A stretch of DNA of 64,000 nucleotides from an uncultured Holophagae bacterium (GCA_963714385.1 CAVQOJ010000002.1:326528-390527); one strand, 5' to 3'; counted from the stretch's first letter, positions 6,320 through 22,852 are shown. Translations and numbers: made by a program. The notes: generated by a model not told the origin, from the sequence alone.

Positions 6320-8035
6320 GTGGTTTCTCGAACCGGAGTGATTTATTTGAGCGACGTCCTGGCCAACCCGCCCACCAATCTGCGCGAAGCGTTGCGCCGA
6401 GCGGCGACCGACTTCCCGGACCGCGGCATCGCGATCTTCGACGGCCGGGGGCGGTCCGTCGACCGCCGAAGCTACTCGGAGCTCCACCGGATCGCCGTCG
6501 AGGCCGCAGCTCGTTTCGCGGCCATCGGCGTCGAGCCTGACGAGCCGGTGCTGGTGGCCCTGCCGACCTCCTGGGAGTGGTTCGAGAGCTGGTTCGGGCT
6601 GATGATGCGCGGCGCCTGGCCGGTGGCCGCCTCGGGGGCCGGGGCGATGGCCGCCGCCGAGACCCAGTTCGACAAGGTCGACAAGGTGATGGCCAATATC
6701 GGAGCCCGTTACGTGGTCGCCAACGAGGCCTTCGCCGAGCAGGCGGCAGGGCAGGGTCACGCCTTCGCCGACGGCGGCGTCATCACGCCGGAATCGCTGG
6801 CCGAGCAGCTTCCATCCACCGGGACTCACCTGGGGTCCAGCGACGGCGGCGACGTCGCCTTTCTCCAGCTTACGAGCGGGTCGACCGGTTTGCCGAGGGC
6901 GGTGATGATCTCCCACCGGGGCGCCATCCATAACCCGCTGGCGAGCACCGAGAGTGTCGGCGCGCCCCACGGCGCACCTGCCCACCACTGGGCGGAGTGC
7001 ATGGTGTCCTGGCTTCCCCTCTATCACGACATGGGGCTCATCGGCTGCCTGATGCTGCCGATACTGACCGGTCTCGACTCCTGGTTGCTGCGACCGCCGA
7101 CCTTTCTCGCCCGACCCAAGCTCTGGCTCCAGCACCTCGCCGCCCATGGGCCTTCCTTTGCCCCCTCTCCCAACTTCGGATACCAGCTCTGCGTCGAGCG
7201 GGTGCGACCCGCGGAGCTGGAGGGCATCGACCTGGGGGCCTGGCGCAGCGCCCTGACCGGAGCCGAGATGGTCCGGCGGGAGACCACCGATGCGTTCATC
7301 GAAGCGTTCGCCCGATTCGGCTTTCGGCCGGAAGCCTTCCAGCCTTGTTACGGGCTGGCGGAAGCAACCCTGGCGGTGACCTTCGACGTCCGCGGAGCAG
7401 GGATCCGTACGCTGCCGGCACCGGCCGGGACCGACGGCGGGTTCAACATGACCGAAGTGGTGAGCAACGGCGAGCCCATCCTGGACACCCGGATCGAGGT
7501 CCGCGCACCGGACGGCACGGTGCTGCCGGCGGGATCGATCGGAGAGATCTGCATCAACGGACCGGGGGTCTTTCTGGGGTATTACAACGATCCGGAGGCC
7601 ACCGCCGCGTCGCTGCAGGATGGCTGGTTCGCCACCGGAGATCTCGGTTTCCTAAATGGAGGGGAACTCTACATCACCGGCCGCACCAAGGACCTGCTGA
7701 TCGTTCACGGCCACAACATCATGCCGGACGAGATCGAACGGCTGGCCGACGCGGTGACCGGCGGCGGCGGCCTCATGCGATCTGCCGCATTTTCGGTCGC
7801 CCGCGGACCCTCCGGCGAGGAGGTGGTGGTGGTGGTGGAGGTCGCCGACAGCGACCCCGACCGGCTCGACGCCATCGCACGGGAGATCAAGATCAAGATC
7901 GGCCGCAACATGGGACTGCCGGTGGCCGATCTGGTCTTCGTCCGCCGAGGCCGAATTCCACGCACGACGAGTGGGAAAATGCAGCGAGGAGAAGTCCGGC
8001 AGCGATATCTCGACGGAACCCTCGAACGGATGTGA
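6320..8035 (+). CDS. fatty acyl-AMP ligase / AMP-dependent synthetase (FAAL-like)
   Basis: 571 aa. AMP-binding motifs LQLTSGSTGLPRAV, YGLAEATL, TGDLGF, TSGKMQR. Exact start (GTG 6320 or downstream TTG) uncertain. Confidence 0.85.
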   Translation: MVSRTGVIYLSDVLANPPTNLREALRRAATDFPDRGIAIFDGRGRSVDRRSYSELHRIAVEAAARFAAIGVEPDEPVLVALPTSWEWFESWFGLMMRGAWPVAASGAGAMAAAETQFDKVDKVMANIGARYVVANEAFAEQAAGQGHAFADGGVITPESLAEQLPSTGTHLGSSDGGDVAFLQLTSGSTGLPRAVMISHRGAIHNPLASTESVGAPHGAPAHHWAECMVSWLPLYHDMGLIGCLMLPILTGLDSWLLRPPTFLARPKLWLQHLAAHGPSFAPSPNFGYQLCVERVRPAELEGIDLGAWRSALTGAEMVRRETTDAFIEAFARFGFRPEAFQPCYGLAEATLAVTFDVRGAGIRTLPAPAGTDGGFNMTEVVSNGEPILDTRIEVRAPDGTVLPAGSIGEICINGPGVFLGYYNDPEATAASLQDGWFATGDLGFLNGGELYITGRTKDLLIVHGHNIMPDEIERLADAVTGGGGLMRSAAFSVARGPSGEEVVVVVEVADSDPDRLDAIAREIKIKIGRNMGLPVADLVFVRRGRIPRTTSGKMQRGEVRQRYLDGTLERM

Positions 8036-8087
8036 ACGCGCGAACGAGGGCCCGCCGCGATGGACTGGAGAACAAGGAGTGGACGCG

Positions 8088-8315
8088 ATGGATCACAAGG
8101 ACACAGCGCTCGCGGTCGTCGCCCAGGTGGCCAAGGTGGATGCCGCGACCATCACCCCGGAAATGGAGCTCGTGGCTGACCTCGAGCTGGATTCGGCTCG
8201 CGCTCTCGAGCTGCTGGTCAAGCTCGAGGACGCCCTCGAAATCGAGATCACCGACGAGGCCGCCGCCCGGCTCAACACGGTTGGCGATATTCTCGCCTAT
8301 ATCGGGACGAGGTGA
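8088..8315 (+). CDS. acyl carrier protein
   Basis: 75 aa from ATG 8088 (AAGGAG 9 nt upstream). LDSARALEL phosphopantetheine-site-like DS motif. The track ORF 7971..8315 has a spurious N-terminal extension. Confidence 0.75.
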   Translation: MDHKDTALAVVAQVAKVDAATITPEMELVADLELDSARALELLVKLEDALEIEITDEAAARLNTVGDILAYIGTR

Positions 8316-8390
8316 CGGTGACGCTCGAGGCCGCACCCATCCGCTCGCTTCTGTTATAGTCCGCGTCCTCAGTCAGTAAAGGACGCAACG

Positions 8391-9650
8391 GTGATGACCG
8401 AGGACGCTCGACAACGGGTCAACTGGTACCTCAACGTTCTGTTGGTGGTCCTCGCCTTCAGCATCCCTCTCTATCGAAAGTGGGTGACCACGGCGGCGCC
8501 CCTGGTGACCATCCTGTGGTTCGTCGAGGGCCGATGGCCGGAGAAAACGGCGGTCCTCAAGCGACACCGGCTGAGCCTCGCGGTTGCGGCATTTGTGACC
8601 CTCAACGTGCTCTCCCTGGCCTGGACGGCCGACCTGGCCGAGGGGCTGGATTACCTCAAGAAGTACCGCTATCTGCTGCTGATCCCGGTCATCACGACCT
8701 CGCTCAGAGGGCGCATTCGAACCCTCGTGGAATCCTCGTTCGTTGCGGGGACCGTGCTGTCGGTGGGGTTGTCCGGGCTGGTGTTCGCCGGAGTCATGAG
8801 GATTCGGGACGCCTACCCCGGGAATCCATCACCGTTCATGTCCCATCTCGATTACAGCATGGTGCTCGCGGTGGCGGCCCTGATCGCGCTGACCCGCGCC
8901 GTCGAGGAATCAACCCCGGCCGGGCGCAGGGCTGCCTGGGTCGCGGCCTTCTGCCTGGTGACCGGAGGGCTGCTGATCAACATCGGCCGCAGCGGCCAGG
9001 CGGCCTTCGTGGCCGCAGTCATCGTCGTCATCCCGCTCGTGCTCTGGCGACGGTCGCCCAAGCTCGCGATGGCGGCGACCGCCGGCGCGGTGATCGCTCT
9101 CGGCGTGACCTACGGCGCGGTGAAACCGTTCCAACACCGCGTCGACGCCGGCATCCACGAGCTGACGACGGCCGTTCACGAGGGCCGATACGACACCAAC
9201 CAGGGTAAACGGGTGGCGGGCGCCGTGGTCGCCGTGGATTTGATCCGCGAGCGGCCGATGCTCGGCACCGGCATCGGCGCCAACATGGAACGATTCCGCG
9301 AGCTGCTGGAGTCGCGGCACCAGGAGCTGAGCCCGGTGGTGGCGTGGTTTCCCCACCTCCACAACCAGTACCTGCAGACCGCCACCGAAACCGGTTTGGT
9401 GGGCCTGGTCCTCCTGCTGGCGGTGTTTGCGGCGCTGGTCGTCGGGCCGTATATGGAACCCCACGACCGCCACGTCGCCTGCCTGCTCGCCGTCATCTAC
9501 CTGGTGGGCTTCCTGGGCGATCCCTATCTCCACAAGCAGCTGCCGCTCGTGCTCTTCGCCACCTTCGCGGGCCTGGCCTCCGCCCGCGGCCGCAGCATCT
9601 TTTGGGAGGAGACACGGACGGGTGACACGGTCTTCCAACCACCACCATGA
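8391..9650 (+). CDS. O-antigen ligase/polymerase family (Wzy_C-type) membrane protein
   Basis: 419 aa, ~10 hydrophobic helices. Characteristic periplasmic loop GRSGQAAF ... HLHNQYLQTATETGLVGL. Confidence 0.75.
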   Translation: MMTEDARQRVNWYLNVLLVVLAFSIPLYRKWVTTAAPLVTILWFVEGRWPEKTAVLKRHRLSLAVAAFVTLNVLSLAWTADLAEGLDYLKKYRYLLLIPVITTSLRGRIRTLVESSFVAGTVLSVGLSGLVFAGVMRIRDAYPGNPSPFMSHLDYSMVLAVAALIALTRAVEESTPAGRRAAWVAAFCLVTGGLLINIGRSGQAAFVAAVIVVIPLVLWRRSPKLAMAATAGAVIALGVTYGAVKPFQHRVDAGIHELTTAVHEGRYDTNQGKRVAGAVVAVDLIRERPMLGTGIGANMERFRELLESRHQELSPVVAWFPHLHNQYLQTATETGLVGLVLLLAVFAALVVGPYMEPHDRHVACLLAVIYLVGFLGDPYLHKQLPLVLFATFAGLASARGRSIFWEETRTGDTVFQPPP

Positions 9651-9834: not shown

Positions 9835-11541
9835 TCAGTCGGTGGTCCGAGCGAGCCGCTGATACTCCGGGCAATCCCGCATCAGCGACTCTCTCGTGCC
9901 CTCGCAGATCACCCGTCCGCCGGTGAGGACGTAGATCCTCGACGCCAGATCCACGGTGGTGAGCCGGTGGGCGATGATGATCGTGATGGTGTCGCCGATG
10001 ATCTGGCGAAGGGACATCTGGATCGCGGCCTCGGTGCGGTTGTCCAGGGCGCTGGTCGCCTCGTCCAGGATCAGGATGTCGGGCTCCTTGTACAGCGCCC
10101 GCGCGATCGCCAGCCGCTGGCGCTGACCGCCCGAAAGGTTGGTGCCGAACTCGTCCAGCACCGCCTCGACGCCGCCACGCATGGCGTTGACGAAGTCCCA
10201 CGCTCCGGCACGCTCGAGGACTCTTCGCACCCGGTCGGGATCGATTTCGGTTCCGTAGGCGACGTTGGCGGCCACGGTGTCGTTGAAGATGTAGACCCGC
10301 TGGGTGACGATTCCGATGCGGTCCCGCAGGGCCCTGAGGTCGAGCTGGCGAACGTCGACGCCGTTCACCAGCACCCGTCCGCCGCTGGCGTCGTAGAGCC
10401 TGAGAATCAGGTTGACCAGCGATGTCTTGCCGCCGCCGCTGTCTCCCACCAGAGCCACCGTTTCGCCTCGCTCGACGACCAGAGAGGCCCCGTGGAGGGC
10501 GCCGACGTCGCCGTAGCTCAGGCTCACGTCGTCAAATTCCAGGCGCCGGATGGGTCCGTCGATGGTCGCCGTTCCGCCGGTGATGTGCGGGGTCAGGTCG
10601 ATCATGCTGAAGATTCGCTCGGAGGCTGCAACCGCCTCGTAAAGCCCGCTGTACACCACCGAGATTCGTTTGATCGGCGTGTACAGCAGGAATAGTGCGG
10701 TGGCGAACGCGGTGAAGCGGCCGGCGGTCATGTGGCCCTCGATCACCTGGTTCCCACCGAACCACACCACCAGCGCGACCGCGATCGATCCGAGAAACTC
10801 CATCAGGGGGCTCGTCAGCTCGCGAACCCGAATTCCCTTCATGTTGATGCGTCGGAACTCCAGGTTGTCCCGCTCGAACCGCGCGGCTTCGAAGTCCTCG
10901 GTGTGGTGGGCCTTGATGATCTCCACGTTGTTGAAGATCTCGGTCAGGCGTGCGGTGATGTCGGCGTCCTTCTCCTGCGAGCGGTGGGCCAGCTTCCGGA
11001 TCCTGCGCGCCAGCACCACCAGCGGGTAGGCGGCGGCGGGGAGCACCACCAGCCCCCAGAAGGCGAGTGTCGGGCTCTTCCACACCGCGACGATGATCAG
11101 TGCCACGATGACCAGGCTCTCTCTGGCGACCACCGACACCGAGTTGGCCACCGCGTAACGGATGCGGCTGACGTCGTTGGTGATCCGCGAGATCAGCTCG
11201 CCGCCCCGAAAGGTGTTGAAGAAGGCGAGATCGAACGACAGCATGTGCCCCAGCAGACGATCCCGGATGCGCCGGACGATGTCCTCCCCGATCCACTGCA
11301 GCTGGTAGGTCTGGGCGTACCGGGCGATGCCCTGAATCAGGTAGAGGCCGATGATCGTCGGCGGCAGCACCAACAGTGCGTGCCGGTCCTTGTTGATGAA
11401 GATGTCGTCGAGCACGTCCTCGATCAGCCAGGTGAGAGCGCCAGTGGTGGCGGCCACCAGGACCACCCCGATCGCGGCCTGGACGAATCGCGGCACGTAG
11501 TCCTTGAAGTACGGTGCGAAGCGTTTAAAAAACTCGGTCAC
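9835..11541 (-). CDS. ABC transporter, fused permease/ATPase (MsbA-like lipid/glycolipid exporter)
   Basis: 568 aa. N-terminal 6-TM domain. GDSGGGKTS Walker A, LSGGQRQRLAIARAL signature, ILILDEATSALD Walker B. Confidence 0.85.
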   Translation of the reverse strand: MTEFFKRFAPYFKDYVPRFVQAAIGVVLVAATTGALTWLIEDVLDDIFINKDRHALLVLPPTIIGLYLIQGIARYAQTYQLQWIGEDIVRRIRDRLLGHMLSFDLAFFNTFRGGELISRITNDVSRIRYAVANSVSVVARESLVIVALIIVAVWKSPTLAFWGLVVLPAAAYPLVVLARRIRKLAHRSQEKDADITARLTEIFNNVEIIKAHHTEDFEAARFERDNLEFRRINMKGIRVRELTSPLMEFLGSIAVALVVWFGGNQVIEGHMTAGRFTAFATALFLLYTPIKRISVVYSGLYEAVAASERIFSMIDLTPHITGGTATIDGPIRRLEFDDVSLSYGDVGALHGASLVVERGETVALVGDSGGGKTSLVNLILRLYDASGGRVLVNGVDVRQLDLRALRDRIGIVTQRVYIFNDTVAANVAYGTEIDPDRVRRVLERAGAWDFVNAMRGGVEAVLDEFGTNLSGGQRQRLAIARALYKEPDILILDEATSALDNRTEAAIQMSLRQIIGDTITIIIAHRLTTVDLASRIYVLTGGRVICEGTRESLMRDCPEYQRLARTTD

Positions 11542-11614: not shown

Positions 11615-12527
11615 TCACGACCCCTCCACCGTGGACGACTGGTCGTCGACCTGCTCCTCGATCCGGTGCAGTCCCTCCCAGGTCGTATCGTCATCGTCAA
11701 ACTCCGGGAGCTTCGGCTCTATGCCGCGGGCATGGTTGACCTGCCACCCCCACAGGATGGCGAACTTCATATACGTGCTGTAAGCCTGGAGTATGCAGAA
11801 CACCAGCCCTCGCGATCCGTCGAGCACCCCGAGCTGGAGGCCGTAGGTCCGCAGGAACCGCCACGCGGGTCTCAGAAGCACGTCGAACACAGTGCAACGG
11901 GTGCCGTCGCGCCAGCACTGGGCCGCCCCCCAGTAGCCGTACCTCGCCAGCCTGAAGGCGTACTCGTCGAAGCTTCGATCCACCATGTGGTGGTCGATGG
12001 AGTGCTTCAGGATCGGAGTCTCTCCCGAGGTATGGAGCAGGGAGTGCACCCTCCGGTTCTCGTAATAGGCGGTGCCGCGCCTGAAGAGCCTGGCCACTCG
12101 GTCCCGCTGCCATCCCGAAAACCGAATTCGCTTGCCGAGAAAGTAACACCGCGCGGTTCATCATGTAGGCGTCGTGCTTGGGCTTGTTGGCCAGCAGATC
12201 TTCCACCTCGCGGCGGAGACCCGGCGTGCACCTTTCGTCGGCGTCCAGCAGCAGCACCCAGTCATATCGAACGTGCTGGAGGGCCCAGTTCTTCTGGGCG
12301 CCCGCTCCAAAGTAAGGACGCTGAAAAAACCGCACCTTGTCGTAGGACCGGGCGATCTCCGGGGTTCGGTCCGACGAAAAGGAGTCCACCAAAATGATCT
12401 CATCGCACCAGTCGATCGACTCGATGCAGTCGCCGATATTGTGCTCCTCGTTGAAGGACGTGATGATCCCGGACACCTTGGGCCTGGGTCTGCCGTCACC
12501 GGTCGCCGTGGTTTCTGGTTCCGTCAT
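11615..12527 (-). pseudogene. family-2 glycosyltransferase interrupted by one frameshift (or assembly indel)
   Basis: N-terminal part in track ORF 11697..12527 (VSGIITSFNEE...LLLDADE...KPKHDAYMMNR). C-terminal part in another frame (ARCYFLGKRIRFSGWQRDRVARLFRRGTAYYENRRVH..., track ORF 11615..12097). The frame switch is confined to accgcgcgg at ~12148-12157. Confidence 0.7.
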
Positions 12528-12662: not shown

Positions 12663-13373
12663 ATGCAGATGAACTCCGAATTTCGGAACCGCCACGTCCT
12701 GCTCGTCGGATCGACGTCCGGCGCCATCGACCGATTTGCGCCGATGCTGCAGCGCGCCGGATTCGATGTCCACACCGTTCGGCCGAGCGAAATCGTCCTC
12801 GACCTGGTCATGGGCACCAACTTCGACGTCCTGATCCTGGGCTACCCGTTGCCGGAGATGGACATCCACAGGCTGCTGTACTCGATCCGGGCGGAAGGCT
12901 CGGCGAGCCACGACGCAGGGGTGTTGCTGCTCGCGCGGCCGGGCTTTCTCGACGCGGCACAGGCGCTGCTGTCACTGGGAGCGAACCGCGTGGTCGGCCT
13001 GGATTGGACGGAATCACGTTTCTGGCAGTCGGTCGGAGATCTCCTCAACGTAGCCCCTCGGGCGCGGCTCAAATCCATGCTCTACGCCGACGTCGAGGCG
13101 TCCGAGGCCCGCGACCGGCTCCTCTACCGCACGGTCAACGTCTCCCGGACCGGCATCCTCCTCCGGGGCGACGACCTGTTCACCCCGGGCACGATCTTCG
13201 ACTTCGCGTTCCGCCTCCCGTCAGAGCCCCGACCCGTGGAAGGGCGCGCCGAGGTGGTCCGCCGCGCCGATCCCGACCGGGAGGGGATGTCCGGAATCGC
13301 CGCCCGGTTCGTCAACCTCCAGGACGACGGGCACTTCCGGCTCAAGCAGTACGTCAAGTACTTCCACGCCTAG
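12663..13373 (+). CDS. pseudo-receiver (REC-like) + PilZ domain protein, putative c-di-GMP effector
   Basis: C-terminal PilZ motifs RARLK (RxxxR) and NVSRTG (D/NxSxxG). The N-terminal CheY-like fold lacks the acidic pocket (LLVGSTSG; LILGYPLPEMD). Confidence 0.65.
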   Translation: MQMNSEFRNRHVLLVGSTSGAIDRFAPMLQRAGFDVHTVRPSEIVLDLVMGTNFDVLILGYPLPEMDIHRLLYSIRAEGSASHDAGVLLLARPGFLDAAQALLSLGANRVVGLDWTESRFWQSVGDLLNVAPRARLKSMLYADVEASEARDRLLYRTVNVSRTGILLRGDDLFTPGTIFDFAFRLPSEPRPVEGRAEVVRRADPDREGMSGIAARFVNLQDDGHFRLKQYVKYFHA

Positions 13374-13474: not shown

Positions 13475-14665
13475 TCAATGTCTCGGAAGGAGAAGGTAGA
13501 GCTCGCCGAGGTGTTTGGTGCGGCCGGCGAGGTCGCCGGCGGCATCGCCGGTTCCAAAAAAGAGATCGACGCGGCCGGGGCCGGTGATCGCGCCGCCGGT
13601 GTCCTCGATGACCACCAACCTCGACAGCGGTTGATCTCCGCCCGAGGGCGACGGCAGGCGACCCCGCAGGAAGGCCACGGTCGGCGCCGGAAACAGGCGC
13701 CGGTCGACGGCGATCGAGCGCCCGGCGGTCACCGGCACCCCGAAACAGCCGATCGGACCCCCCTCGGCAGGCAGCGAACGGAAGAAGACGTAGCTCGGGT
13801 TGTAGCTCAGCACCCGCACCACCTCCTCCGGGTGGGCGTGCAGGTACGCCTTGATCGCCTGCATGGACATCTCGTCGGGGGTCATCGCACCCTCGTCGAG
13901 CAAGAGCCGCCCGATCGAGCGGTAGGGATGCCCGTTGCCCGAAGCGTACCCGGCACGGAGCCGTTCGCCACTCGGAAAGACCAGAGTTCCAGACCCCTGG
14001 ACCTGCAGGAAGAAGACCTCCACGACGTCATCCAGGTAGCCGAGAACCTCCGGAGTTGCCGGCAAACCCTCCTCGAAATCGATCTCGCCTCGGTCCGGGA
14101 ACGGAACCAGCCGCGACCCGTCGAGTCGCCCCACCAGTGACTTCCGGTCGCACTCCACCCCGAAATCGGAGAGGTCCAGGCTGATGAGATCGCCGGGAAT
14201 CACATAGATCGGGTACACGAACGGCGACTCGGCGATGCGACGGGCATCGAGCAGCGGCTCGTAGTAGCCGGTGATCAAGACCTCTCCCCGTCCATCGCGG
14301 CCGGCAGACCGAAGCAGGACGAAGCTCTCCTGCAGGGCCTTGGTCCGAGTCGACGGATCCCCAAACCCCTCCACGATGGCCGCGGCCAGCCGCAGGCCCG
14401 AGGCGAGCTCGGCGGCCGATCGTCGGTGACTCCCGAACAGGAAGCTCCGTTCAGGCTGGAGACCCTCGAGGTACTGCAAACCGTATCCCACCGCCTCGGC
14501 GAAGCTGGCGGGATCCAGGTCATCCAGCAGGGACGGCCACTGACTCTCCGGCACCACCTCGAATGGTGCGGGGGCCGGTACCGGGGGTGGCGGGGTGGTG
14601 GTTGCGCACGCCCAACCCAACACGGCGGACGCCAGAGCCGGCGCCGCCCGCCACGAACGGATCAA
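13475..14665 (-). CDS. mltA: membrane-bound lytic murein transglycosylase A (MltA family) lipoprotein
   Basis: C-terminal ~400 aa of track ORF 13475..15931. ITGYYEP, FFLQVQGSG, GYASGNGHPYRSIGR, DTGGAI motifs. Lipobox LGWAC. Proposed TTG start 14665 overlaps the dctM stop (TTGA). Confidence 0.8.
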   Translation of the reverse strand: MIRSWRAAPALASAVLGWACATTTPPPPVPAPAPFEVVPESQWPSLLDDLDPASFAEAVGYGLQYLEGLQPERSFLFGSHRRSAAELASGLRLAAAIVEGFGDPSTRTKALQESFVLLRSAGRDGRGEVLITGYYEPLLDARRIAESPFVYPIYVIPGDLISLDLSDFGVECDRKSLVGRLDGSRLVPFPDRGEIDFEEGLPATPEVLGYLDDVVEVFFLQVQGSGTLVFPSGERLRAGYASGNGHPYRSIGRLLLDEGAMTPDEMSMQAIKAYLHAHPEEVVRVLSYNPSYVFFRSLPAEGGPIGCFGVPVTAGRSIAVDRRLFPAPTVAFLRGRLPSPSGGDQPLSRLVVIEDTGGAITGPGRVDLFFGTGDAAGDLAGRTKHLGELYLLLPRH

Positions 14666-15927
14666 GGCACCAGGGCCAGAGAAAGCCACGGCAGGTAGGT
14701 GATGAGCAGCACGCAGATCAACAGAATGACGAGGAACGGGATCGCCGCCCTGTAAAGCAGAATGATCGGTTTTTCGAACCGGTAGCTCGCGATGAACAGG
14801 TTGATGCCTACCGGAGGGGTGCAGTAGCCGATCTGCATGTTGGCCAGGAAGATGATGCCGAGGTGGATCGGGTCGACGCCGTAACCCATCGCCAGCGGGA
14901 GGATCAGCGGCACCACGATCACCAGCGCCGAGAACACATCGAGCATGGTGCCGAGCAGCAGCAGGAAGATGTTGAGCAGAATCAAGAAGGTGAGCTTGCT
15001 CGACACGTGGGTGGTCACCGCGGCGAACAGCTTGGTGGGAACCTGGGCGTCGATCATGTAGTTGGTGGAGGCGAGCGACGCACCCAGGATGATCAGAATG
15101 CCGCCCACCATCATCATCGACTCGCGCATGATCCCGGGCAGACGGCGCATCGGGATCTCCCGATAGATCAGGACCTCCACCACGAACACGTAGACCACGG
15201 TCACTGCCGCCGCCTCGGAGACCGCGAATATTCCGCTGTAGACACCGCCGAGCACGATCACGGGGAGGGGGGCCTCCCACATCGCTTCGCGCAGCGCCGC
15301 TCCGACCTCGCCAAAGCTGAAGGGAGGGGCCACCACCGCTGCGGTGGTCACCTGCCGGCCGGCGCGATAGCTCCACATCGCCAGCAGCCCGAGCATGAGC
15401 ACCCCCGGCAGGATGCCGGCGATGAACAGCTTGTCGATGGGCACCTCGGCGACGATTCCGTACAGGATGAGCGGCAGCGAGGGGGCGAACAGCAGACCGA
15501 GGCTGCCCGAGGTCGTGATCAGACCGAGATTGAACTTCTCGGTGTACCCGGCGTCGCGCAACGCCGGGTAGAGCAGCGCGCCGAGGGCGACGATGGTCAC
15601 CCCGGAGGCACCGGTAAAGGCCGTGAACAGAGCGCAGGCCACCAGCGCCACCACTGCGAGCCCGCCGGGAAGCCACCCGAAAAGCGCGTTCGACGCCCGC
15701 ACCAGCCGCCGCGGGGCTTCGCTCTCCCCGAGCAGATAACCGGCAAAGGTGAACAGTGGGATGGCGAGCAGCACCGGCGTTTCGGCGATCCGGTACATCT
15801 CCATCGGCACGATCATCGGATCGACGCCGGTCTTCGAAAACCCGATCAGAGCGCTGGCCGCGATCACCGCGAACAGCGGGGCTCCCAGCACGGCCAACAG
15901 GATCAGGGCGAGACCGATGAGGATCAT
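14662..15927 (-). CDS. TRAP transporter large permease (DctM family)
   Basis: Polytopic membrane protein MILIGLALILLAVLGAPLFAV.... Start ATG 15927 overlaps the dctQ stop (ATGA). Confidence 0.9.
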   Translation of the reverse strand: MILIGLALILLAVLGAPLFAVIAASALIGFSKTGVDPMIVPMEMYRIAETPVLLAIPLFTFAGYLLGESEAPRRLVRASNALFGWLPGGLAVVALVACALFTAFTGASGVTIVALGALLYPALRDAGYTEKFNLGLITTSGSLGLLFAPSLPLILYGIVAEVPIDKLFIAGILPGVLMLGLLAMWSYRAGRQVTTAAVVAPPFSFGEVGAALREAMWEAPLPVIVLGGVYSGIFAVSEAAAVTVVYVFVVEVLIYREIPMRRLPGIMRESMMMVGGILIILGASLASTNYMIDAQVPTKLFAAVTTHVSSKLTFLILLNIFLLLLGTMLDVFSALVIVVPLILPLAMGYGVDPIHLGIIFLANMQIGYCTPPVGINLFIASYRFEKPIILLYRAAIPFLVILLICVLLITYLPWLSLALVP

Positions 15928-16442
15928 CCATCCCCCCGATCGCCCAGGACCGCCCTCAGGTGGTGGCCGGCATAGACCAGGTAACGCACGGCAATCACCG
16001 TGAAGGCCACGGGCAGGATCAGCTCGCACACCCACATGGGGACCGACGCGAATAGCGTGGTGCCGGCCTCCCGGTCACTCTGCAGCAGGCGCCAGGCGTT
16101 CCAGCCCACCGCCAGGGAAACCCCGGCGGTGAAGAGATCGGTGAACACGCGGAGCGCCGCCTTCGACCGTTTCGACAGAAACCGCGACACGGCGTCCACC
16201 GAGATCTGTTTGTCGAACCGGGTCGCTACCATGGCGCCGACCATGCCGACCCAGAGCACCATCACCCTCAGCGAGGGGTCCGCCCACAGCAGACCCCTCC
16301 CGAGGACGTTCCGAAACAGAATCTGGCTGGCCGCCAAAACGATCATTCCCGCCAGCAGCGCCACCAGCAACCCGTCCTCCACCGCCTCCACCGCCCTCAG
16401 CAACGGGCTTCTGGGAACGCCGCCAGCCGGGCGGTCGCTCAC
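15924..16442 (-). CDS. TRAP transporter small permease (DctQ family)
   Basis: ~172 aa, 4 hydrophobic helices. GTG start 16442 overlaps the dctP stop (GTGA). The track ORF N-terminal extension is rejected. Confidence 0.75.
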   Translation of the reverse strand: MSDRPAGGVPRSPLLRAVEAVEDGLLVALLAGMIVLAASQILFRNVLGRGLLWADPSLRVMVLWVGMVGAMVATRFDKQISVDAVSRFLSKRSKAALRVFTDLFTAGVSLAVGWNAWRLLQSDREAGTTLFASVPMWVCELILPVAFTVIAVRYLVYAGHHLRAVLGDRGDG

Positions 16443-17464
16443 CGGCCGGTCCCGGCCCCACCGTGCTCGGCCCGAAAGGCGGTCAGGGCGGCCTGGATCT
16501 GGGAGATAAGGCTCGGATCGTAGTTCTGGGAGGAGATCAGCGACCGTGTCGCCTCTGCGGCGATGGTCTTCCACCTCTGGACCGTTTCCTCGGTGGGGCT
16601 GACGAAGGTCACGCCCTGCTTCTCCAGGGCGATCCGCGCACCAGCGTTGTCGGCGCGGGCCTTGCCGTCAAGGGTCGCGGTCACCCGGCCCATCACCTCT
16701 TTGACCAACGCCTGATCTTCCGGCTTGAGACGATCGAAGGCCTGCCGGCTGAGGACCAGTGCCCCGTAGACGTACGTCACCGGCAGGTCGGTCACGAAGG
16801 TGGCCCTGGTGAACCACTGCAGGGCCACCGCCGCCACCGGCGGCGCCGCCACGGTGTCCACGAGACCGGTCTGCAACCCCGTCATCACGTCCGCCAGACC
16901 CAGCGGCACCGGCGACAAGCCGGCCCCGTCCACGATCGCCTTCGAAATGCTGTCCCCCTCCGGCATCCAGACCTTGCGGCCCTTGAGGTCGGCAAAAGAC
17001 CGGGCCGGCTTGGTGGACATCAGGTACACGAATCCGGTTTCCACAAAACCAAGCACAACGTACCCGTCATCCTCGATTCTGTCGATCAACTTCTGATCGA
17101 AGCGCTGACGGATCCAGTCGACCTCGTCGTAGTCTTCGAACAGCAGCGGCAGGTTATAAAGCTCGGCGTTGTTTTCGACCGACGCCAGGCTGCCGGACAG
17201 AATCGCCCCGCCGTGCAGCTGGCCGATTCGCATCTTGCGCAGCACCGCCAGGTCCGAACCCATGGTGCCGCCGGGATAGAAACGGAAGGTCACCCGATTC
17301 GACGTTCGCTCGGCAATCTCGTCGGCGCCGAGGCGGGCCTCGTTGACCCAGGTCGATCCCTCGGGAGCGATGGTGGCGATCTTCAGCTGCACCTGCTGGG
17401 CTGAAGCCACGCCGGCCGACAGCAGGGTTGTGATGGCAACGGCGGCGGTCGTCAGCTTCCTCAT
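16439..17464 (-). CDS. TRAP transporter substrate-binding protein (DctP/TatP-type)
   Basis: 341 aa. Signal peptide MRKLTTAAVAITTLLSAGVASAQQ. DctP-family length and composition. In an operon with Q/M. Confidence 0.9.
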   Translation of the reverse strand: MRKLTTAAVAITTLLSAGVASAQQVQLKIATIAPEGSTWVNEARLGADEIAERTSNRVTFRFYPGGTMGSDLAVLRKMRIGQLHGGAILSGSLASVENNAELYNLPLLFEDYDEVDWIRQRFDQKLIDRIEDDGYVVLGFVETGFVYLMSTKPARSFADLKGRKVWMPEGDSISKAIVDGAGLSPVPLGLADVMTGLQTGLVDTVAAPPVAAVALQWFTRATFVTDLPVTYVYGALVLSRQAFDRLKPEDQALVKEVMGRVTATLDGKARADNAGARIALEKQGVTFVSPTEETVQRWKTIAAEATRSLISSQNYDPSLISQIQAALTAFRAEHGGAGTGR

Positions 17465-17467
17465 TCG

Positions 17468-18388
17468 TCAGTCTCCAAAGTAATCCTGCGAGTCTGCCAG
17501 GAGCCGGCGCGCGTCTTCCTGGGCAATGGCGTTGGACAGGGTGAAGCCCGGCTGCACCGGATCCGCCTCGATGACCTCCCGGCACAACTGATCGTGGAGC
17601 TCACGATCGAAGGTCAGCCGCGCGTACTCGCTCGCCAGCAGGGTCTTGGCCATCAGGTTGCGACCGCCGGACAGCTCGATCGCCTTCTCGAAGTGGCGCC
17701 TGCCTTCCTCGGGGTGGCCGCCCATCGCCGCGGGCAGCAGGGATTCCAGAGCGCCCAGATAAAGATACGCGGACCCTTCGCGAAAATCAGGGTCGATCTC
17801 GGCCACCCGTCTCATCATTGCGTCGACCCTGGCCTTGTCGGCGATGGCCGACCAGTCGGCCCGGTGGACGCGAATCCATGTCGTCCAGGCAGCCGCCGTC
17901 ACGAACGCCGCGGGGACGTCTTTCGGGCCGAGACTCCCGACGGCGGCCTCGAAGCGGTCGAAGGGTGCGGTCCAGCTGTCGCACATCGTCTTCTTGGTGC
18001 CGCACATACCTCGCCACCCATAGTCACGGCCCTTGACCGACAGCCGCTTCGCACGCTCTGGATCCTCGACGAAGGCGGCCGCGTAGCTCGAGTAGAGCTC
18101 GGCGCCGGCCAGGAGCACATCGCTGCCGTTCGGGTTGTCGGCGATCAAACCGTCGATGAGCACCAGATAGGCCGGGGCGGCCTGGCGTACCGTTTCGGGG
18201 TCGTTCTGGTTGACGATGGCCTCCGAGAGGTTGTTGGCCAATCGGCCCGTGGTGGACGACACCACCGCCGAGCAACCGGTCAACGCCGCCGACAGCCCGA
18301 CCGCGACCATCAGACGGCCGGCGCGAATCACACCGTTTGTTGCCGTTCGATCAACGTTCAAAGGGTCCCTCGTCATATGGATCTGCAA
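17468..18388 (-). CDS. TatT-family TPR-like lipoprotein (accessory component of TPAT-type TRAP transporters)
   Basis: Lipobox LTGCS. Helical-repeat protein ending ...AMGGHPEEGRRHFEKAIELSGGRNLMAKTLLASEYARLTFDRELHDQL, as in TatT homologues. 3-nt gap to dctP. Confidence 0.7.
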   Translation of the reverse strand: MQIHMTRDPLNVDRTATNGVIRAGRLMVAVGLSAALTGCSAVVSSTTGRLANNLSEAIVNQNDPETVRQAAPAYLVLIDGLIADNPNGSDVLLAGAELYSSYAAAFVEDPERAKRLSVKGRDYGWRGMCGTKKTMCDSWTAPFDRFEAAVGSLGPKDVPAAFVTAAAWTTWIRVHRADWSAIADKARVDAMMRRVAEIDPDFREGSAYLYLGALESLLPAAMGGHPEEGRRHFEKAIELSGGRNLMAKTLLASEYARLTFDRELHDQLCREVIEADPVQPGFTLSNAIAQEDARRLLADSQDYFGD

Positions 18389-18426
18389 CCGGCCGCAGCC
18401 GAGGTCGATTCCCGGCGACTCATCTG

Positions 18427-19074
18427 TCAGCGGGCGCCGAACCCCCCGCGGAGTGTACCGCCGTCTCCCGATAAACGGGCGATCGGCACCGTTGGGCCCG
18501 CCCCGCCGGTATTGGTGATGACGGTCCGGCCCTGAGTGTCCCGCGTCATCTTGACCGGGGAGATCAAGCGACCGCCCGAGATCCGGTACGGCTTGCCCGT
18601 GTACAACGACATGATCCTCGCCACATAGTCCCTGGTCTCCCGGTAGGGCGGAATCCCCCGGTATTTCTCCACCGCCCCTTCACCGGCGTTGTACGCGGCC
18701 AGGGCGAGCTGGAGGTTGCCCGAGTACCGGTCGATGAGCCGGTCCAGCTCGCGCACCCCGCCCCGCACATTCTGCTCGGGATCGAAGGGGTCGTCGACGT
18801 CGAGCCGGTCCGCGGTGGCCGGCATCAGCTGCATCAGCCCCTGGGCGCCCTTGCGACTCAGCGCCCGCGGGTTGTAGCCGGACTCGACCCGCACCAGGGC
18901 ATCCACGAGTTGCGGATCGAGCCCCCGTTCGCTGCTGATCTCCCGCACCAGCTCGCGCAGGTCTGTCTGCCGGACCACCCCGTCGGCCGCCGGCGGCGCG
19001 GAAGCATCCACCGTCGCCGCGGGCGGGACCGCTGCGCCGAGCGCAGCCAAAATGAGTACCGATCGAACACCCAT
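18427..19074 (-). CDS. soluble lytic transglycosylase (SLT domain) protein
   Basis: RVESGYNPRALSRKGAQGLMQLMPATA...AYNAGEGAV. Signal peptide from ATG 19074 (MGVRSVLILAALGAAV). The track ORF extension to 19260 is rejected. Confidence 0.8.
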   Translation of the reverse strand: MGVRSVLILAALGAAVPPAATVDASAPPAADGVVRQTDLRELVREISSERGLDPQLVDALVRVESGYNPRALSRKGAQGLMQLMPATADRLDVDDPFDPEQNVRGGVRELDRLIDRYSGNLQLALAAYNAGEGAVEKYRGIPPYRETRDYVARIMSLYTGKPYRISGGRLISPVKMTRDTQGRTVITNTGGAGPTVPIARLSGDGGTLRGGFGAR

Positions 19075-19111
19075 CCCAGTTATTATGACAAATCGTGTGC
19101 CGGAGGTGCAG

Positions 19112-20521
19112 ATGAAAGCCGAAAATTCCGACGATCGCTGTCGGCCCTTCATCGCTCGAATGGAAGCGGCCGGCCTGCCGCCGCGGGCAATCTCCACCTT
19201 CTGCCACCACCTGCGCACGCTGACCTCGGGAGCCGGGGCCACCCTGGACCGAGACTCCATCTGGCCGGTCGAGTCGCTGCCGGACTCGGAATCGCTCGGC
19301 GGCGCGGGGAGCGCCGGGCGTGCGGCGCTTCAACGAGTCGTGGTCATCAAGCTGAATGGTGGGCTCGGCACCTCAATGGGCCTCGATCGCGCCAAGTCCC
19401 TGGTCGAGGTGCGCGGTGGATACGCCTTCCTCGACCTCATCGCCCGCCAGCTCATGGCGCTGCGCCGGCGGTTCGACTGCGCCGTCCCGCTGCTGCTCAT
19501 GAACAGTTTCAACACGGCGGACGACACCCGACGGGCGCTGGCGAACCACCCGGATATTCCTGTTGCCGGCCTCCCCCTGGGCTTCCTCCAGGGCAGCGTC
19601 CCGAAGGTCGTCGAGAACGGCCTCCGACCGGCCGTCTGGCCCGCCGATCCGCGACTGGAGTGGTGCCCCCCCGGCCACGGCGATCTCTACACCTCGCTCG
19701 ACACTACCGGCTTGCTGGCCAACCTGCTCGACCGCCGGTACGACGTCGCCTTCGTGTCCAACGCCGACAACCTGGGAGCGGTGCTCGATCTGGACATCCT
19801 CGGCCACCTGGTAGAGCGGCGACTGCCGTTCCTGATCGAGGCGGCGGACCGCACCACCGCCGACCGTAAGGGCGGCCACCTGTGCCGGCTCGGCGACGGT
19901 CGCCTCGCCCTGCGCGAGTCCGCACAGTGCCCGGTGGGAGAGGAAGAGGATTTTCAGGATGTCGGACGATATCGGTACTTCAACACCAACAACCTCTGGC
20001 TGCACCTGCCGTCGCTGCGCGAGCTGCTCGACCGCCATGCCGGGGTGATGCCGCTGCCCACCATCGTCAACAAAAAGACCATCGATCCCCGGGATCCCGA
20101 TTCGCCCGCCGTCCTCCAGCTCGAGACCGCCATGGGCGCCGCGCTGCCCCTGTTCGAAGGCGCCGAGGCGATCCGCGTCCCGCGGAGCCGGTTCTCACCG
20201 GTCAAGAACACCGACGACCTGCTGGCGGTGCGCTCCGACGCCTATCGGCTGACCGAAGACGGTCGCGTCATTCTGGACGAGTCCCGCCGGATGCCACCGG
20301 TGGTTTCATTGGACCGGCGGTTCTTCAAGCTCATCGACGACTTCGAGGCGCGCTTCCCGTTCGGCGCGCCGTCGCTGCTGGCCTGCGACTCCCTGACCGT
20401 CGACGGGGACGTCACCTTCGGGCGGGGTGTCGAGCTTCGAGGTGACGTTCGGATCACCGCTGCCGCCGGACCCGCGACCGTCGCGGACGGCTCGATCTTC
20501 ACAGGTGATGTTCTGCTTTGA
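19112..20521 (+). CDS. UTP--glucose-1-phosphate uridylyltransferase, UDPGP (eukaryotic-type) family
   Basis: VVIKLNGGLGTSMGLDRAKS, LMNSFNT, PPGHGD motifs. Start at ATG 19112 after GGAGG. Confidence 0.8.
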   Translation: MKAENSDDRCRPFIARMEAAGLPPRAISTFCHHLRTLTSGAGATLDRDSIWPVESLPDSESLGGAGSAGRAALQRVVVIKLNGGLGTSMGLDRAKSLVEVRGGYAFLDLIARQLMALRRRFDCAVPLLLMNSFNTADDTRRALANHPDIPVAGLPLGFLQGSVPKVVENGLRPAVWPADPRLEWCPPGHGDLYTSLDTTGLLANLLDRRYDVAFVSNADNLGAVLDLDILGHLVERRLPFLIEAADRTTADRKGGHLCRLGDGRLALRESAQCPVGEEEDFQDVGRYRYFNTNNLWLHLPSLRELLDRHAGVMPLPTIVNKKTIDPRDPDSPAVLQLETAMGAALPLFEGAEAIRVPRSRFSPVKNTDDLLAVRSDAYRLTEDGRVILDESRRMPPVVSLDRRFFKLIDDFEARFPFGAPSLLACDSLTVDGDVTFGRGVELRGDVRITAAAGPATVADGSIFTGDVLL

Positions 20522-20815: not shown

Positions 20816-22852
20816 ATGACCGACCAGCCGAAGTCTCTGCCCGAAAACGCGTATCGCGAGCTGAAACCCGGCGAGACCTACACCCCGGTGATCCCGGAGG
20901 AGCGGGGAACCCTCGAGGTCACCGTGCGGTCGGTGTTGTTCGGGCTCTTCATGGGAATCTTGTTCTCCGCGGCGGCGGCCTACATCGCCCTCAAGCTCGG
21001 CCAGGGCATCGAGTCGGCGATTCCCATTTCGATCCTCGCCATCGGCTTCTCGGCGCTGCTCGCCCGCAAGTCGACCCTGCTGGAGAACGTCAACATCCTC
21101 GCCATTGGAGCCACGTCGGGCATCCTGGTCGGCGGCTCGGTGTTCACGATGCCCGCCATCTTCGTGCTCGGCCTCCAGGACCGCACCTCGTTCTTCCAGA
21201 TCTTCATCGTGCCCTTCCTCGGCGCCTGTCTCGGGGTGGTCTTCCTGATCCCGTTCCGCCGCTACTTCGTGGCCGAGATGCACGGCAAGCTCCCCTATCC
21301 CGAGGGCACCGCCATCACCGAGATCTTGATGACCGGCGAGCGTGGCGGCCAGCAGGCCAAGGTGCTGGTGTCGGCCATGGGCATCGGTTTCGCCTTCGAT
21401 TTCGTGGCGCTCACCTTTTCGGCCTGGAGAGACATCTTCACCACCGGGCTGGTCCGCGCCCTCGACCCTTTGACCCACAAGGTGAAGGCCGTCTTCGCCA
21501 TCAACACGTCGGCCGCGGTGCTCGGCCTCGGTTACATCATCGGCGTTCGCTACGCCTCGATCATCTGTGCCGGTTCGTTCCTCGCCTACTTCGTGTTGGT
21601 GCCGCTGGTGGCCTGGATCGGCGCTCTCGTGCCCGGCATCGTCGGCGGCGGCCCCGCCCCGATCGCCGAAATGGGTGCCGAGGACATCTTCTTCGAGTAC
21701 GTGCGGTTCATCGGCATTGGCGGCATCTTCATGGCCGGAATCATCTCCATCGTCAAGATGTCACCGGTGATGGTGCAGGCGTTGGGCAAGGCCTTCACCG
21801 AGATCCGCAAGATGGTCACCGGCGGGCTCCGCACCGAAGCCAAGAGGACCGATACCGACATTCCGATGGGCCTGGTGGTGGTCATGACGGCGGTGGTGGC
21901 GGTGGTGATCTGGCTCTACTTCCGGTTCTCGGTGCTCGCTGCGAATCCCGAGGCCACCAAGATCGCCACGTACGCGTTGATCCTCACCCTGACGGTGTCG
22001 TTCCTGTTCGCCGCCGTCTCGGCCTGGGCGGTGGCGATGATCTCGGTGACGCCGATCTCCGGCATGACCCTGACCACCCTGATCGTGTCCGCGGTCGTTC
22101 TGGCCAAGCTCGGCCTGACCGGCCCCGAGGGCATGCTGGCGACCCTGCTGATCGGCGGTGTCGTGTGCACGGCGCTGTCGATGACCGGCTCCCTGGTCAC
22201 CGAGTTCAAGGTCAGCTACTGGCTCGGCGCCACCCCGCGCAAGATCCAGTGGTCGAATATCCTGGCCGCGGCGGTCGCCTCGATCACGGTCACCGCCGCC
22301 ATCATGCTGTTCGCCTCCACCAAGGGCTACGTGGTGACTGCGGCCCACCCCAACCCCATGCCGGCACCCCAGGCCAACGCCATGGCGGCGGTCATCCAAA
22401 GCGTCATGGCCTCTGCCGAGGCGCCGTGGCTGCTTTATGGTGTGGGCGCCGTGATCGCCCTGATCGTCGAGATGCTCGGCGTGTCTTCCCTGGCCTTCGC
22501 CCTCGGCATGTACCTGCCCATCGAGCTCAACTCGCCGATCCTGTTCGGCGCCCTGGTCGCCGAGTACGTACGTCGATCCGCGCCGTCTGAAGACGCGCGC
22601 CGCGCCCGCAACAACCGCGGCACCCTGATCGCCTCCGGCCTGATTGCCGGCGGCGCATTGGCGGGCGTGGCCGACGGCGTGTTGAGCTGGATCGCCGATG
22701 CCCGCGGCGCCACCATCTGGTCCTTCGGCAACACCGGCGGGCTCGGCAACTGGCTCGGCCTGATCCTGTTCGCCGTCCTCGCCGGCTACGTGATCTGGGA
22801 CGCCTCGCGGGCCAAGGAGGAGGAGGGGGCGGGTCCCGAGATTTCAATGTGA
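20816..22852 (+). CDS. OPT-family oligopeptide transporter
   Basis: 678 aa, ~16 TM. N-terminus YRELKPGETYTPVIPEE...VRSVLFGLFMGILFSAAAAYIALKLGQ typical of bacterial OPT proteins. Confidence 0.85.
   Translation: MTDQPKSLPENAYRELKPGETYTPVIPEERGTLEVTVRSVLFGLFMGILFSAAAAYIALKLGQGIESAIPISILAIGFSALLARKSTLLENVNILAIGATSGILVGGSVFTMPAIFVLGLQDRTSFFQIFIVPFLGACLGVVFLIPFRRYFVAEMHGKLPYPEGTAITEILMTGERGGQQAKVLVSAMGIGFAFDFVALTFSAWRDIFTTGLVRALDPLTHKVKAVFAINTSAAVLGLGYIIGVRYASIICAGSFLAYFVLVPLVAWIGALVPGIVGGGPAPIAEMGAEDIFFEYVRFIGIGGIFMAGIISIVKMSPVMVQALGKAFTEIRKMVTGGLRTEAKRTDTDIPMGLVVVMTAVVAVVIWLYFRFSVLAANPEATKIATYALILTLTVSFLFAAVSAWAVAMISVTPISGMTLTTLIVSAVVLAKLGLTGPEGMLATLLIGGVVCTALSMTGSLVTEFKVSYWLGATPRKIQWSNILAAAVASITVTAAIMLFASTKGYVVTAAHPNPMPAPQANAMAAVIQSVMASAEAPWLLYGVGAVIALIVEMLGVSSLAFALGMYLPIELNSPILFGALVAEYVRRSAPSEDARRARNNRGTLIASGLIAGGALAGVADGVLSWIADARGATIWSFGNTGGLGNWLGLILFAVLAGYVIWDASRAKEEEGAGPEISM

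Follow-up and report, generated by a model that had tools for sequence, protein, structure and literature searches.

A TatT-containing TRAP transporter locus with adjoining lytic transglycosylase genes in an uncultured Holophagae bacterium, a candidate lipid importer

TatT-containing systems (TPAT) are the least understood class of the tripartite ATP-independent periplasmic (TRAP) transporters and a candidate route of lipid uptake in spirochaetes as well as in many sediment and marine bacteria. A stretch of 64,000 nucleotides (nt) from an uncultured Holophagae bacterium (GCA_963714385.1 CAVQOJ010000002.1:326528-390527; hereafter the window, with positions counted from its first letter) carries a new member of this class, in which tatT is adjacent to and co-oriented with dctP, dctQ and dctM, and in which two lytic transglycosylase genes, slt and mltA, adjoin the transporter genes on either side. 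With moderate confidence, the locus can be read as a lipid-type TPAT importer, with the transglycosylases acting as accessory or co-regulated envelope enzymes and not as suppliers of its substrate. As far as could be found, an association of TPAT systems with murein-remodelling genes is undescribed, and it is seen again in other lineages, where the enzyme families are different.

The original prediction, made from the sequence of the window, described six genes packed like an operon on the minus strand, and both the gene identities and the packing are borne out by open reading frame (ORF) calls, Pfam and NCBIfam searches and inspection of the junctions. All six ORFs are present, each with its expected Pfam domain, as follows.

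18427..19074, minus strand: slt (Pfam PF01464 SLT, E 1.4e-29)
18311..18426, minus strand: slt-tatT spacer, its length depending on the tatT start
17468..18388, minus strand: tatT (PF16811 TAtT, E 4e-73, matched over profile positions 1-263 of 263)
16439..17464, minus strand: dctP (PF03480; NCBIfam TRAP_S1, E 1.4e-88)
15924..16442, minus strand: dctQ, small TRAP membrane subunit (PF04290, E 5.6e-21)
14662..15927, minus strand: dctM, large TRAP permease subunit (PF06808, E 3.6e-86; TIGR00786, 354 bits)
13475..14665, minus strand: mltA (PF03562 MltA, E 5e-53; PF06725 3D domain, E 1.5e-20)

From tatT onwards the genes are tightly joined, with a gap of 3 nt between tatT and dctP followed by three overlaps of 4 nt, namely GTGA between dctP and dctQ (dctQ starting with GTG), ATGA between dctQ and dctM (dctM starting with ATG) and TTGA between dctM and mltA (mltA starting with TTG). 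These junctions are as originally described, and they are partly shared by related TPAT loci, labelled L001 and onwards, with which the window was compared: the dctQ orthologues of L001 and L002 encode 172 amino acids (aa) and show the identical type of overlap, and dctM and mltA overlap by 4 nt in L001 as well. The 38-nt gap claimed between slt and tatT holds only if tatT starts at the TTG at 18388, as a start at the ATG at 18376 (M5) or at 18310 (M27) gives 50 or 116 nt, respectively, and the public gene call for an identical TatT protein uses M27 (280 aa), leaving 116 nt. In relatives, the slt stop and the Cys of the TatT lipobox lie 93-294 nt apart. As the gap depends on the start and varies in relatives, the slt-tatT junction is looser than those joining tatT, dctP, dctQ and dctM. 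Co-transcription of slt with tatT is possible. Promoter and terminator scans of the cluster gave no site above background inside it or at its ends, an Rfam search of the spacers matched no family, and folding of the slt-tatT spacer RNA revealed no significant structure (z = -0.03), the mltA 3' region likewise being at background.

Both sequence and predicted fold place the T component in the TatT family. The lipobox, LTG-C, has its Cys codon at 18272-18274, the Cys being invariant in homologues, and it is kept with any choice of start; TatT is therefore predicted to be a periplasmic lipoprotein. Sequence searches of the PDB matched 8g52 (best, E 1.5e-15) and 3u64, and the AlphaFold2 model (predicted local distance difference test, pLDDT, 89) retrieved 8g52, 3u64 and 4di3_A as top Foldseek hits with query-normalised TM-scores (TMq) of 0.67-0.79, followed by BstC. 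Thus, TatT of the window is the tetratricopeptide repeat (TPR)-like T component of a TPAT transporter, with 19-24% identity to TatT proteins of solved structure. The TatT protein of Enhygromyxa salina (Es_TatT) was crystallised with palmitate (PDB 8G52), and both Es_TatT and Tp0956 of Treponema pallidum prefer long-chain fatty acids, while the TatT-like BstC of Methylococcus capsulatus (PDB 7T1S) binds sterols and has a resistance-nodulation-division (RND) exporter as its partner (PMC11713862). The view taken originally, that TPAT systems have no firmly established ligand, is thus outdated. Both 8G52 and BstC fall within the same superfamily as TatT of the window and support lipid binding as a family activity, yet neither exceeds 24% identity to it, and the partner of BstC is an exporter of the RND type, whereas that of the window protein is a TRAP permease.

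The binding protein points in the same direction. DctP has an ordinary signal peptide of the ASA|QQ type and is not a lipoprotein; its AlphaFold2 model (pLDDT 88) matched generic TRAP binding proteins in Foldseek, which did not discriminate the ligand. Using SiaP of Haemophilus influenzae as the reference for the binding site, with a sequence checked to match PDB 2cex exactly, the carboxylate-binding Arg, R147, was found to align to Trp166 of DctP (codon 16967-16969). A Trp occupies this position in all 30 close homologues and in 84/84 TatT-linked DctP proteins from several phyla. Among the same 84 proteins, the position of SiaP R127 is A, T, V or S, that of N187 is T, A, G, S or V, and that of N10 is L, I, M or V. 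Judged from this alignment, the cleft would be hydrophobic, which suits a hydrophobic or amphipathic ligand. The exchange of Arg for Trp, together with small or hydrophobic residues at the other polar contacts, argues against polar anhydromuropeptides with their multiple carboxylates, so the uptake of peptidoglycan turnover products originally suggested for this transporter finds no support in the binding site. In addition, the invariant change from Arg to Trp offers a simple sequence marker for the sampled clade of TatT-linked DctP proteins.

The closest described system is the TPAT transporter of T. pallidum, consisting of TatT (Tp0956), TatP(T) (Tp0957) and TatQ-M (Tp0958), in which TatT has a hydrophobic pore and TatP(T) a hydrophobic cleft (Deka et al. 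2012 and Brautigam et al. 2012, reviewed in PMC5812351). As in the window, tatT lies directly upstream of the genes for the binding protein and permease, TatT is a lipoprotein of the same fold (TMq 0.78-0.79 for the window model against 3u64 and 4di3_A), and in the binding protein a hydrophobic cleft takes the place of the carboxylate-binding Arg, a chemistry like that of DctP in the window. The two systems differ in that T. pallidum has a single dctQM homologue, tatQM (PMC5812351), whereas dctQ and dctM are separate in the window, and in that DctP of the window is no lipoprotein but carries an ordinary signal peptide; the TatT proteins are 19-20% identical. Nor is Tp0957 the nearest solved relative of DctP, ranking 26 with the TPAT profile and 58 in another search. 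Lytic transglycosylase genes, present in the window, are unmentioned for the T. pallidum operon in the cited literature.

For T. pallidum, a FadL-TatT-TatP relay spanning the periplasm, starting from FadL-like proteins of the outer membrane, has been proposed to handle poorly soluble nutrients (PMC8407342), and the transporter of the window may work along similar lines. The TatT lipoprotein, through its TPR-like pore-forming fold, would pass a hydrophobic or amphipathic ligand, most likely a long-chain fatty acid or a lipid resembling one, to the soluble DctP. DctP, with a cleft devoid of the usual carboxylate-binding residues, would then dock on DctQ and DctM, which would import the ligand at the expense of an ion gradient. 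Finally, SLT and MltA may open the murein locally, allowing the relay from TatT to DctP to work across the periplasm. By analogy, a relay resembling FadL-TatT-TatP might plausibly benefit from such an opening.

Both enzymes look catalytically competent, judging by their motifs. SLT, a predicted family-1 lytic transglycosylase of 215 aa, is of the secreted type with a hydrophobic N-terminus and contains the catalytic E64-S, GLMQ at 79 and AYNAG at 127, followed by a C-terminal extension of ~50 aa kept in orthologues; the full-length profile is matched by orthologues in the 23 other slt-carrying loci described below. The best NCBIfam model, BB0259_flg_lyt, is matched in the SLT domain only and below its cutoff (92 against 234 bits), so SLT is not a member of that family. 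MltA has the catalytic-type Asp355 within DTGGAI (codon 13601-13603), and as its NCBIfam MltA score of 162 bits falls below the equivalog cutoff of 242, it is a member of the family and not an equivalog of Escherichia coli MltA.

The distribution of these genes separates the transporter from its partners. A genome scan with one genome per species yielded 80 loci with a DctP identity of 40-65%, labelled Thermoanaerobaculia, Holophagae, Sulfomarinibacteraceae, Gammaproteobacteria, Desulfobacterales, Myxococcota, Nitrospinaceae and Binatia, and a second scan of metagenome contigs brought the total to ~160 TPAT loci. A DctP alignment was used for the scan, diverse TatT alignments having no stretch conserved enough for the purpose. 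ORF profile searches showed that tatT-dctP-dctQ-dctM form the core of nearly all of these ~160 loci in several phyla. A small SLT gene directly upstream of tatT and in the same direction was seen in the window and in 23 further loci of the first set, and four more loci with the same arrangement were fetched through their SLT orthologues. The slt-carrying loci form a single DctP clade of Thermoanaerobaculales-like acidobacteria, with the slt-less L019 nested inside it, and every SLT orthologue (59-65% identity) with examined context adjoins tatT within the same block of genes. Going by the organism labels of these relatives, the source of the window appears to be a Thermoanaerobaculales-like acidobacterium as well. 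Outside this arrangement, TPAT loci without slt occur in L019, L020 and L029, all labelled Acidobacteriota, and ~55 TPAT loci from proteobacterial, desulfobacterial and other phyla have neither slt nor mltA adjacent.

The presence of mltA is patchy. For relatives, its profile was built from aligned domains only, the longest mltA ORFs running into dctM. The gene is present in the window, L001, L002, L016, L017 (fragmented), L024-L026 and L085-L087, and absent from the L003-L015 loci, L022, L023 and L088, a pattern scattered over both deep branches of the slt clade in the DctP tree. In L024-L026, mltA lies 2.5-3.5 kb beyond dctM, and among the genes between dctM and mltA or the PilZ gene in L022-L026, none had a Pfam match save an MscS-type gene seen in both L024 and L026. 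Whenever mltA occurs, it is next to a PilZ-domain gene. Since mltA is patchy and at times detached from dctM, the bracket of two transglycosylases emphasised originally is a variable feature of one lineage: of the order slt-tatT-dctPQM-mltA, the part from slt to dctM is kept in the 23 and four loci of one clade, whereas mltA is missing from most of them. In L017 (12640-14004) mltA is broken into several ORFs, as are dctP and dctM in L003 (10883-13685), reflecting either gene decay or assembly frameshifts.

Screening the flanks of slt-less loci for murein genes revealed that the position upstream of tatT is taken by other murein-related families in other lineages. A co-directional gene for an RlpA-like lipoprotein with a DPBB_1 domain lies immediately upstream of tatT in five Desulfobacterales-type loci, encoding 229-240 aa with a threonine/lysine-rich repeat region at the N-terminus, and several further families occupy the same place.

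L033:7865-8554, plus strand: RlpA-like gene
L039:7847-8536, plus strand: RlpA-like gene
L045:544-1233, plus strand: RlpA-like gene
L056:7979-8668, plus strand: RlpA-like gene
L068:1045-1767, plus strand: RlpA-like gene
L074:6305-8767: MltD-like protein with SLT and LysM domains, 820 aa, directly upstream of tatT
L113:1-1116: ORF on a contig of the metagenome scan, in the same position upstream of tatT, placed here by its sequence match to the L074 protein only
L059:1739-2716: M23 peptidase, directly upstream of tatT
L067:7685-8788: FtsW/RodA protein (SEDS family), directly upstream of tatT
L126:1445-2026: weak SPOR-domain match, directly upstream of tatT
L146:1770-2354: weak SPOR-domain match, directly upstream of tatT

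Further away, L074 has an MltF-like gene at 5 kb, and in L044 a Slt70-like gene is found 4 kb upstream. A single ancestral mrdAB-rlpA cluster as the common source of the RlpA and FtsW/RodA adjacency was rejected, as the SEDS gene of L067 is preceded by an HflX-type GTPase and not by PBP2. None of the gammaproteobacterial loci with screened flanks has a murein neighbour at tatT; the upstream enrichment also caught cysDN-type genes, which reflect gammaproteobacterial synteny, and the downstream flanks of TPAT loci showed no murein or fatty-acid theme. Given ~35 distinct types of upstream neighbourhood in the genome set and a similar number estimated for the metagenome set, the presence of three transglycosylase families, or of six families related to murein, at one position has a rough binomial P of ~1e-4 to 1e-6, with background frequencies taken from general knowledge. 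The recurrence of murein genes upstream of tatT is a real lead, not a result.

Taken with the binding-site chemistry, the distribution favours a lipid importer with accessory enzymes: the near-invariance of tatT-dctP-dctQ-dctM beside lineage-specific slt and mltA supports the importer, and the recurrence of murein families upstream of tatT in separate lineages supports an accessory role for the enzymes. It also lends some support to a secondary idea in the original prediction, namely that assembly of the transporter needs local remodelling of the murein. Several points weigh on the other side. The ligand is assigned by analogy with TatT homologues of at most 24% identity, and because identity is this low it is not confidently transferable, BstC showing that ligands differ within the family. 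The loss of the Arg is not a unique pointer to fatty acids, since fatty acids are carboxylates too, and the invariant Trp could stack on a sugar ring. Genes for FadD, FadL and beta-oxidation are not enriched next to TPAT loci. A soluble DctP of 35 kDa should cross the murein unaided, which makes the need for a murein gateway speculative, and the variable spacer makes the co-transcription of slt with tatT uncertain. Finally, murein genes are lacking near most TPAT loci, and the enrichment P concerns a category chosen post hoc, assumes independent neighbourhoods and depends on an estimated background frequency.

The most serious competitor to the lipid importer with accessory enzymes, though itself rather unlikely, holds that there is no functional link at all: slt and mltA would be housekeeping murein hydrolases that lie beside the transporter through order-wide synteny, the hydrophobic ligand being imported independently of them. 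The slt-carrying loci indeed share a long block in the order pyrB-pyrC-S1-OPT-UDPGP<>slt-TPAT-(mltA)<PilZ-GT2-(ABC)-WzyC, and all of them have the divergent UDPGP gene upstream and, wherever the contig is long enough, the PilZ, GT2 (family 2 glycosyltransferase) and Wzy_C genes downstream. As this block includes unrelated housekeeping genes, the conservation of slt beside the transporter is weak evidence of function, and the patchy, partly detached mltA, the three acidobacterial and ~55 other loci without either gene, and the loose slt-tatT spacer all fit a mere neighbourhood. However, slt is always co-directional with and immediately upstream of tatT, to which all examined SLT orthologues adjoin, the 4-nt overlap of mltA and dctM is shared by the window and L001, and different murein families recur at one position in unrelated lineages, for which the chance expectation is low. 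If the partnership is not real, the locus is just another TPAT operon within a syntenic block of acidobacteria.

The opposite possibility, which we regard as doubtful, goes beyond an accessory role and couples the TPAT transporter functionally to the sacculus. Lineages would then independently have put a gene for cleaving, binding or building murein directly upstream of tatT, with MltA downstream, for a relay that needs a dedicated opening of the wall or positioning on it. Lytic transglycosylases dedicated to one machine are well known, e.g., VirB1 in type IV secretion, EtgA and IpgF in type III secretion, and FlgJ, SltF and the spirochaetal BB0259 in flagella. Like enzymes of the VirB1, EtgA and BB0259 type, SLT of the window is a small secreted enzyme whose gene adjoins those of an envelope system and points the same way. 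It stays below the cutoff of the BB0259 model, however, and the partner family of TPAT loci varies by lineage and is absent at most loci. We know of no secondary transporter that needs a dedicated lytic transglycosylase. If the coupling is true, it would give the first example of an ion-driven secondary transporter equipped with a murein-remodelling accessory of its own; TPAT systems would be envelope-spanning assemblies instead of relying on freely diffusing binding proteins, and the transporter would be added to the few machines that have wall-remodelling enzymes dedicated to them.

The model put forward in the original prediction, in which the transglycosylases release 1,6-anhydromuropeptides that TatT, DctP and DctQM import for recycling by a route other than AmpG, is the least supported and now appears improbable. 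In enterobacteria, lytic transglycosylases supply the substrates for anhydromuropeptide recycling by AmpG, NagZ and AmpD and for murein-peptide uptake by Opp and MppA. By established enzymology, the SLT, MltA, RlpA and MltD-like families produce 1,6-anhydroMurNAc ends, their adjacency to the transporter recurs, stacking of a sugar on the invariant DctP Trp is conceivable, and an oligopeptide transporter of the OPT family lies two genes away in the block. Yet AmpG is generally known as a permease of the major facilitator superfamily without a binding protein, whereas the system in the window is binding-protein-dependent with a hydrophobic site in which none of the three polar or charged residues that contact the ligand in carboxylate-binding TRAP binding proteins is kept. 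The TatT homologues bind fatty acids or sterols (PMC11713862), the M23, FtsW/RodA and SPOR neighbours yield no soluble anhydromuropeptides, and most TPAT loci have no nearby transglycosylase. Among the strong Pfam families listed for the rest of the 64-kb window (25 of 32), there were no cytoplasmic recycling enzymes, none being NagZ, AmpD, AnmK, MurQ, LdcA or Mpl, and no family of the NagZ, AmpD, AnmK or MurQ type occurred among the enriched neighbours. The library of papers searched contained none tying TRAP or TPAT transporters to murein enzymes, lytic transglycosylases or muropeptides.

Similarly improbable is that the transporter recycles a hydrophobic envelope lipid tied to murein growth and division, such as fatty acids, lysolipids or the polyprenyl carrier, with the murein genes as co-regulated growth partners, as this idea draws on hydrophobic binding sites, on synthetic and septal neighbours (FtsW/RodA, RlpA, SPOR and M23) besides the transglycosylases, and on the GT2, MsbA-like ABC transporter, Wzy_C and AMP-binding genes of the block, with a PP-binding gene in L001 and L002, whereas its support is purely from gene context, the murein association is missing at most loci, and a membrane-embedded carrier lipid is not obviously in need of a periplasmic binding protein.

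Apart from the enzymes, two further genes flank the transporter in the window.

19112..20521, plus strand: UDP-sugar pyrophosphorylase of the UDPGP family (Pfam UDPGP, E 3e-125), divergent from slt
12663..13373, plus strand: PilZ-domain protein (PilZ, E 4e-7) with a degenerate N-terminal receiver (Response_reg, E 4.6e-5, below the cutoff)

The starts of slt and the UDPGP gene are ~37 nt apart (19075-19111), with spacers of 11-88 nt in relatives, and because they lie so close, the promoters of both genes must fall largely inside neighbouring coding sequence. The UDPGP gene belongs to the conserved block and not to the transporter. At the other end, the PilZ gene converges on mltA or dctM in all loci of the clade with a long enough contig and marks the downstream end of the unit; a gene with a GGDEF domain is found elsewhere in the window.

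Beyond the PilZ gene, the GT2 gene (11630-12527, minus strand) is split over two frames near 12141-12148, being a pseudogene made by a frameshift or else the product of an error in the assembly; its orthologue in L001 is intact with 301 aa. The MsbA-like ABC transporter gene (9835-11541, minus strand) lies with it, and converging on these two are an AMP-binding gene resembling fatty-acyl-AMP ligases and then a gene of the Wzy_C/O-antigen-ligase family (6320-9650, plus strand), with the PP-binding carrier-protein gene located beyond Wzy_C in L001 and L002. Situated 2-7 kb from the transporter and conserved in relatives, the AMP-binding, Wzy_C, ABC and GT2 genes together resemble a module for envelope lipids or glycolipids. 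On the far side of the UDPGP gene, the OPT-family oligopeptide transporter gene (20816-22852, plus strand), kept in many loci of the block, is the only nearby gene whose product could conceivably handle peptides.

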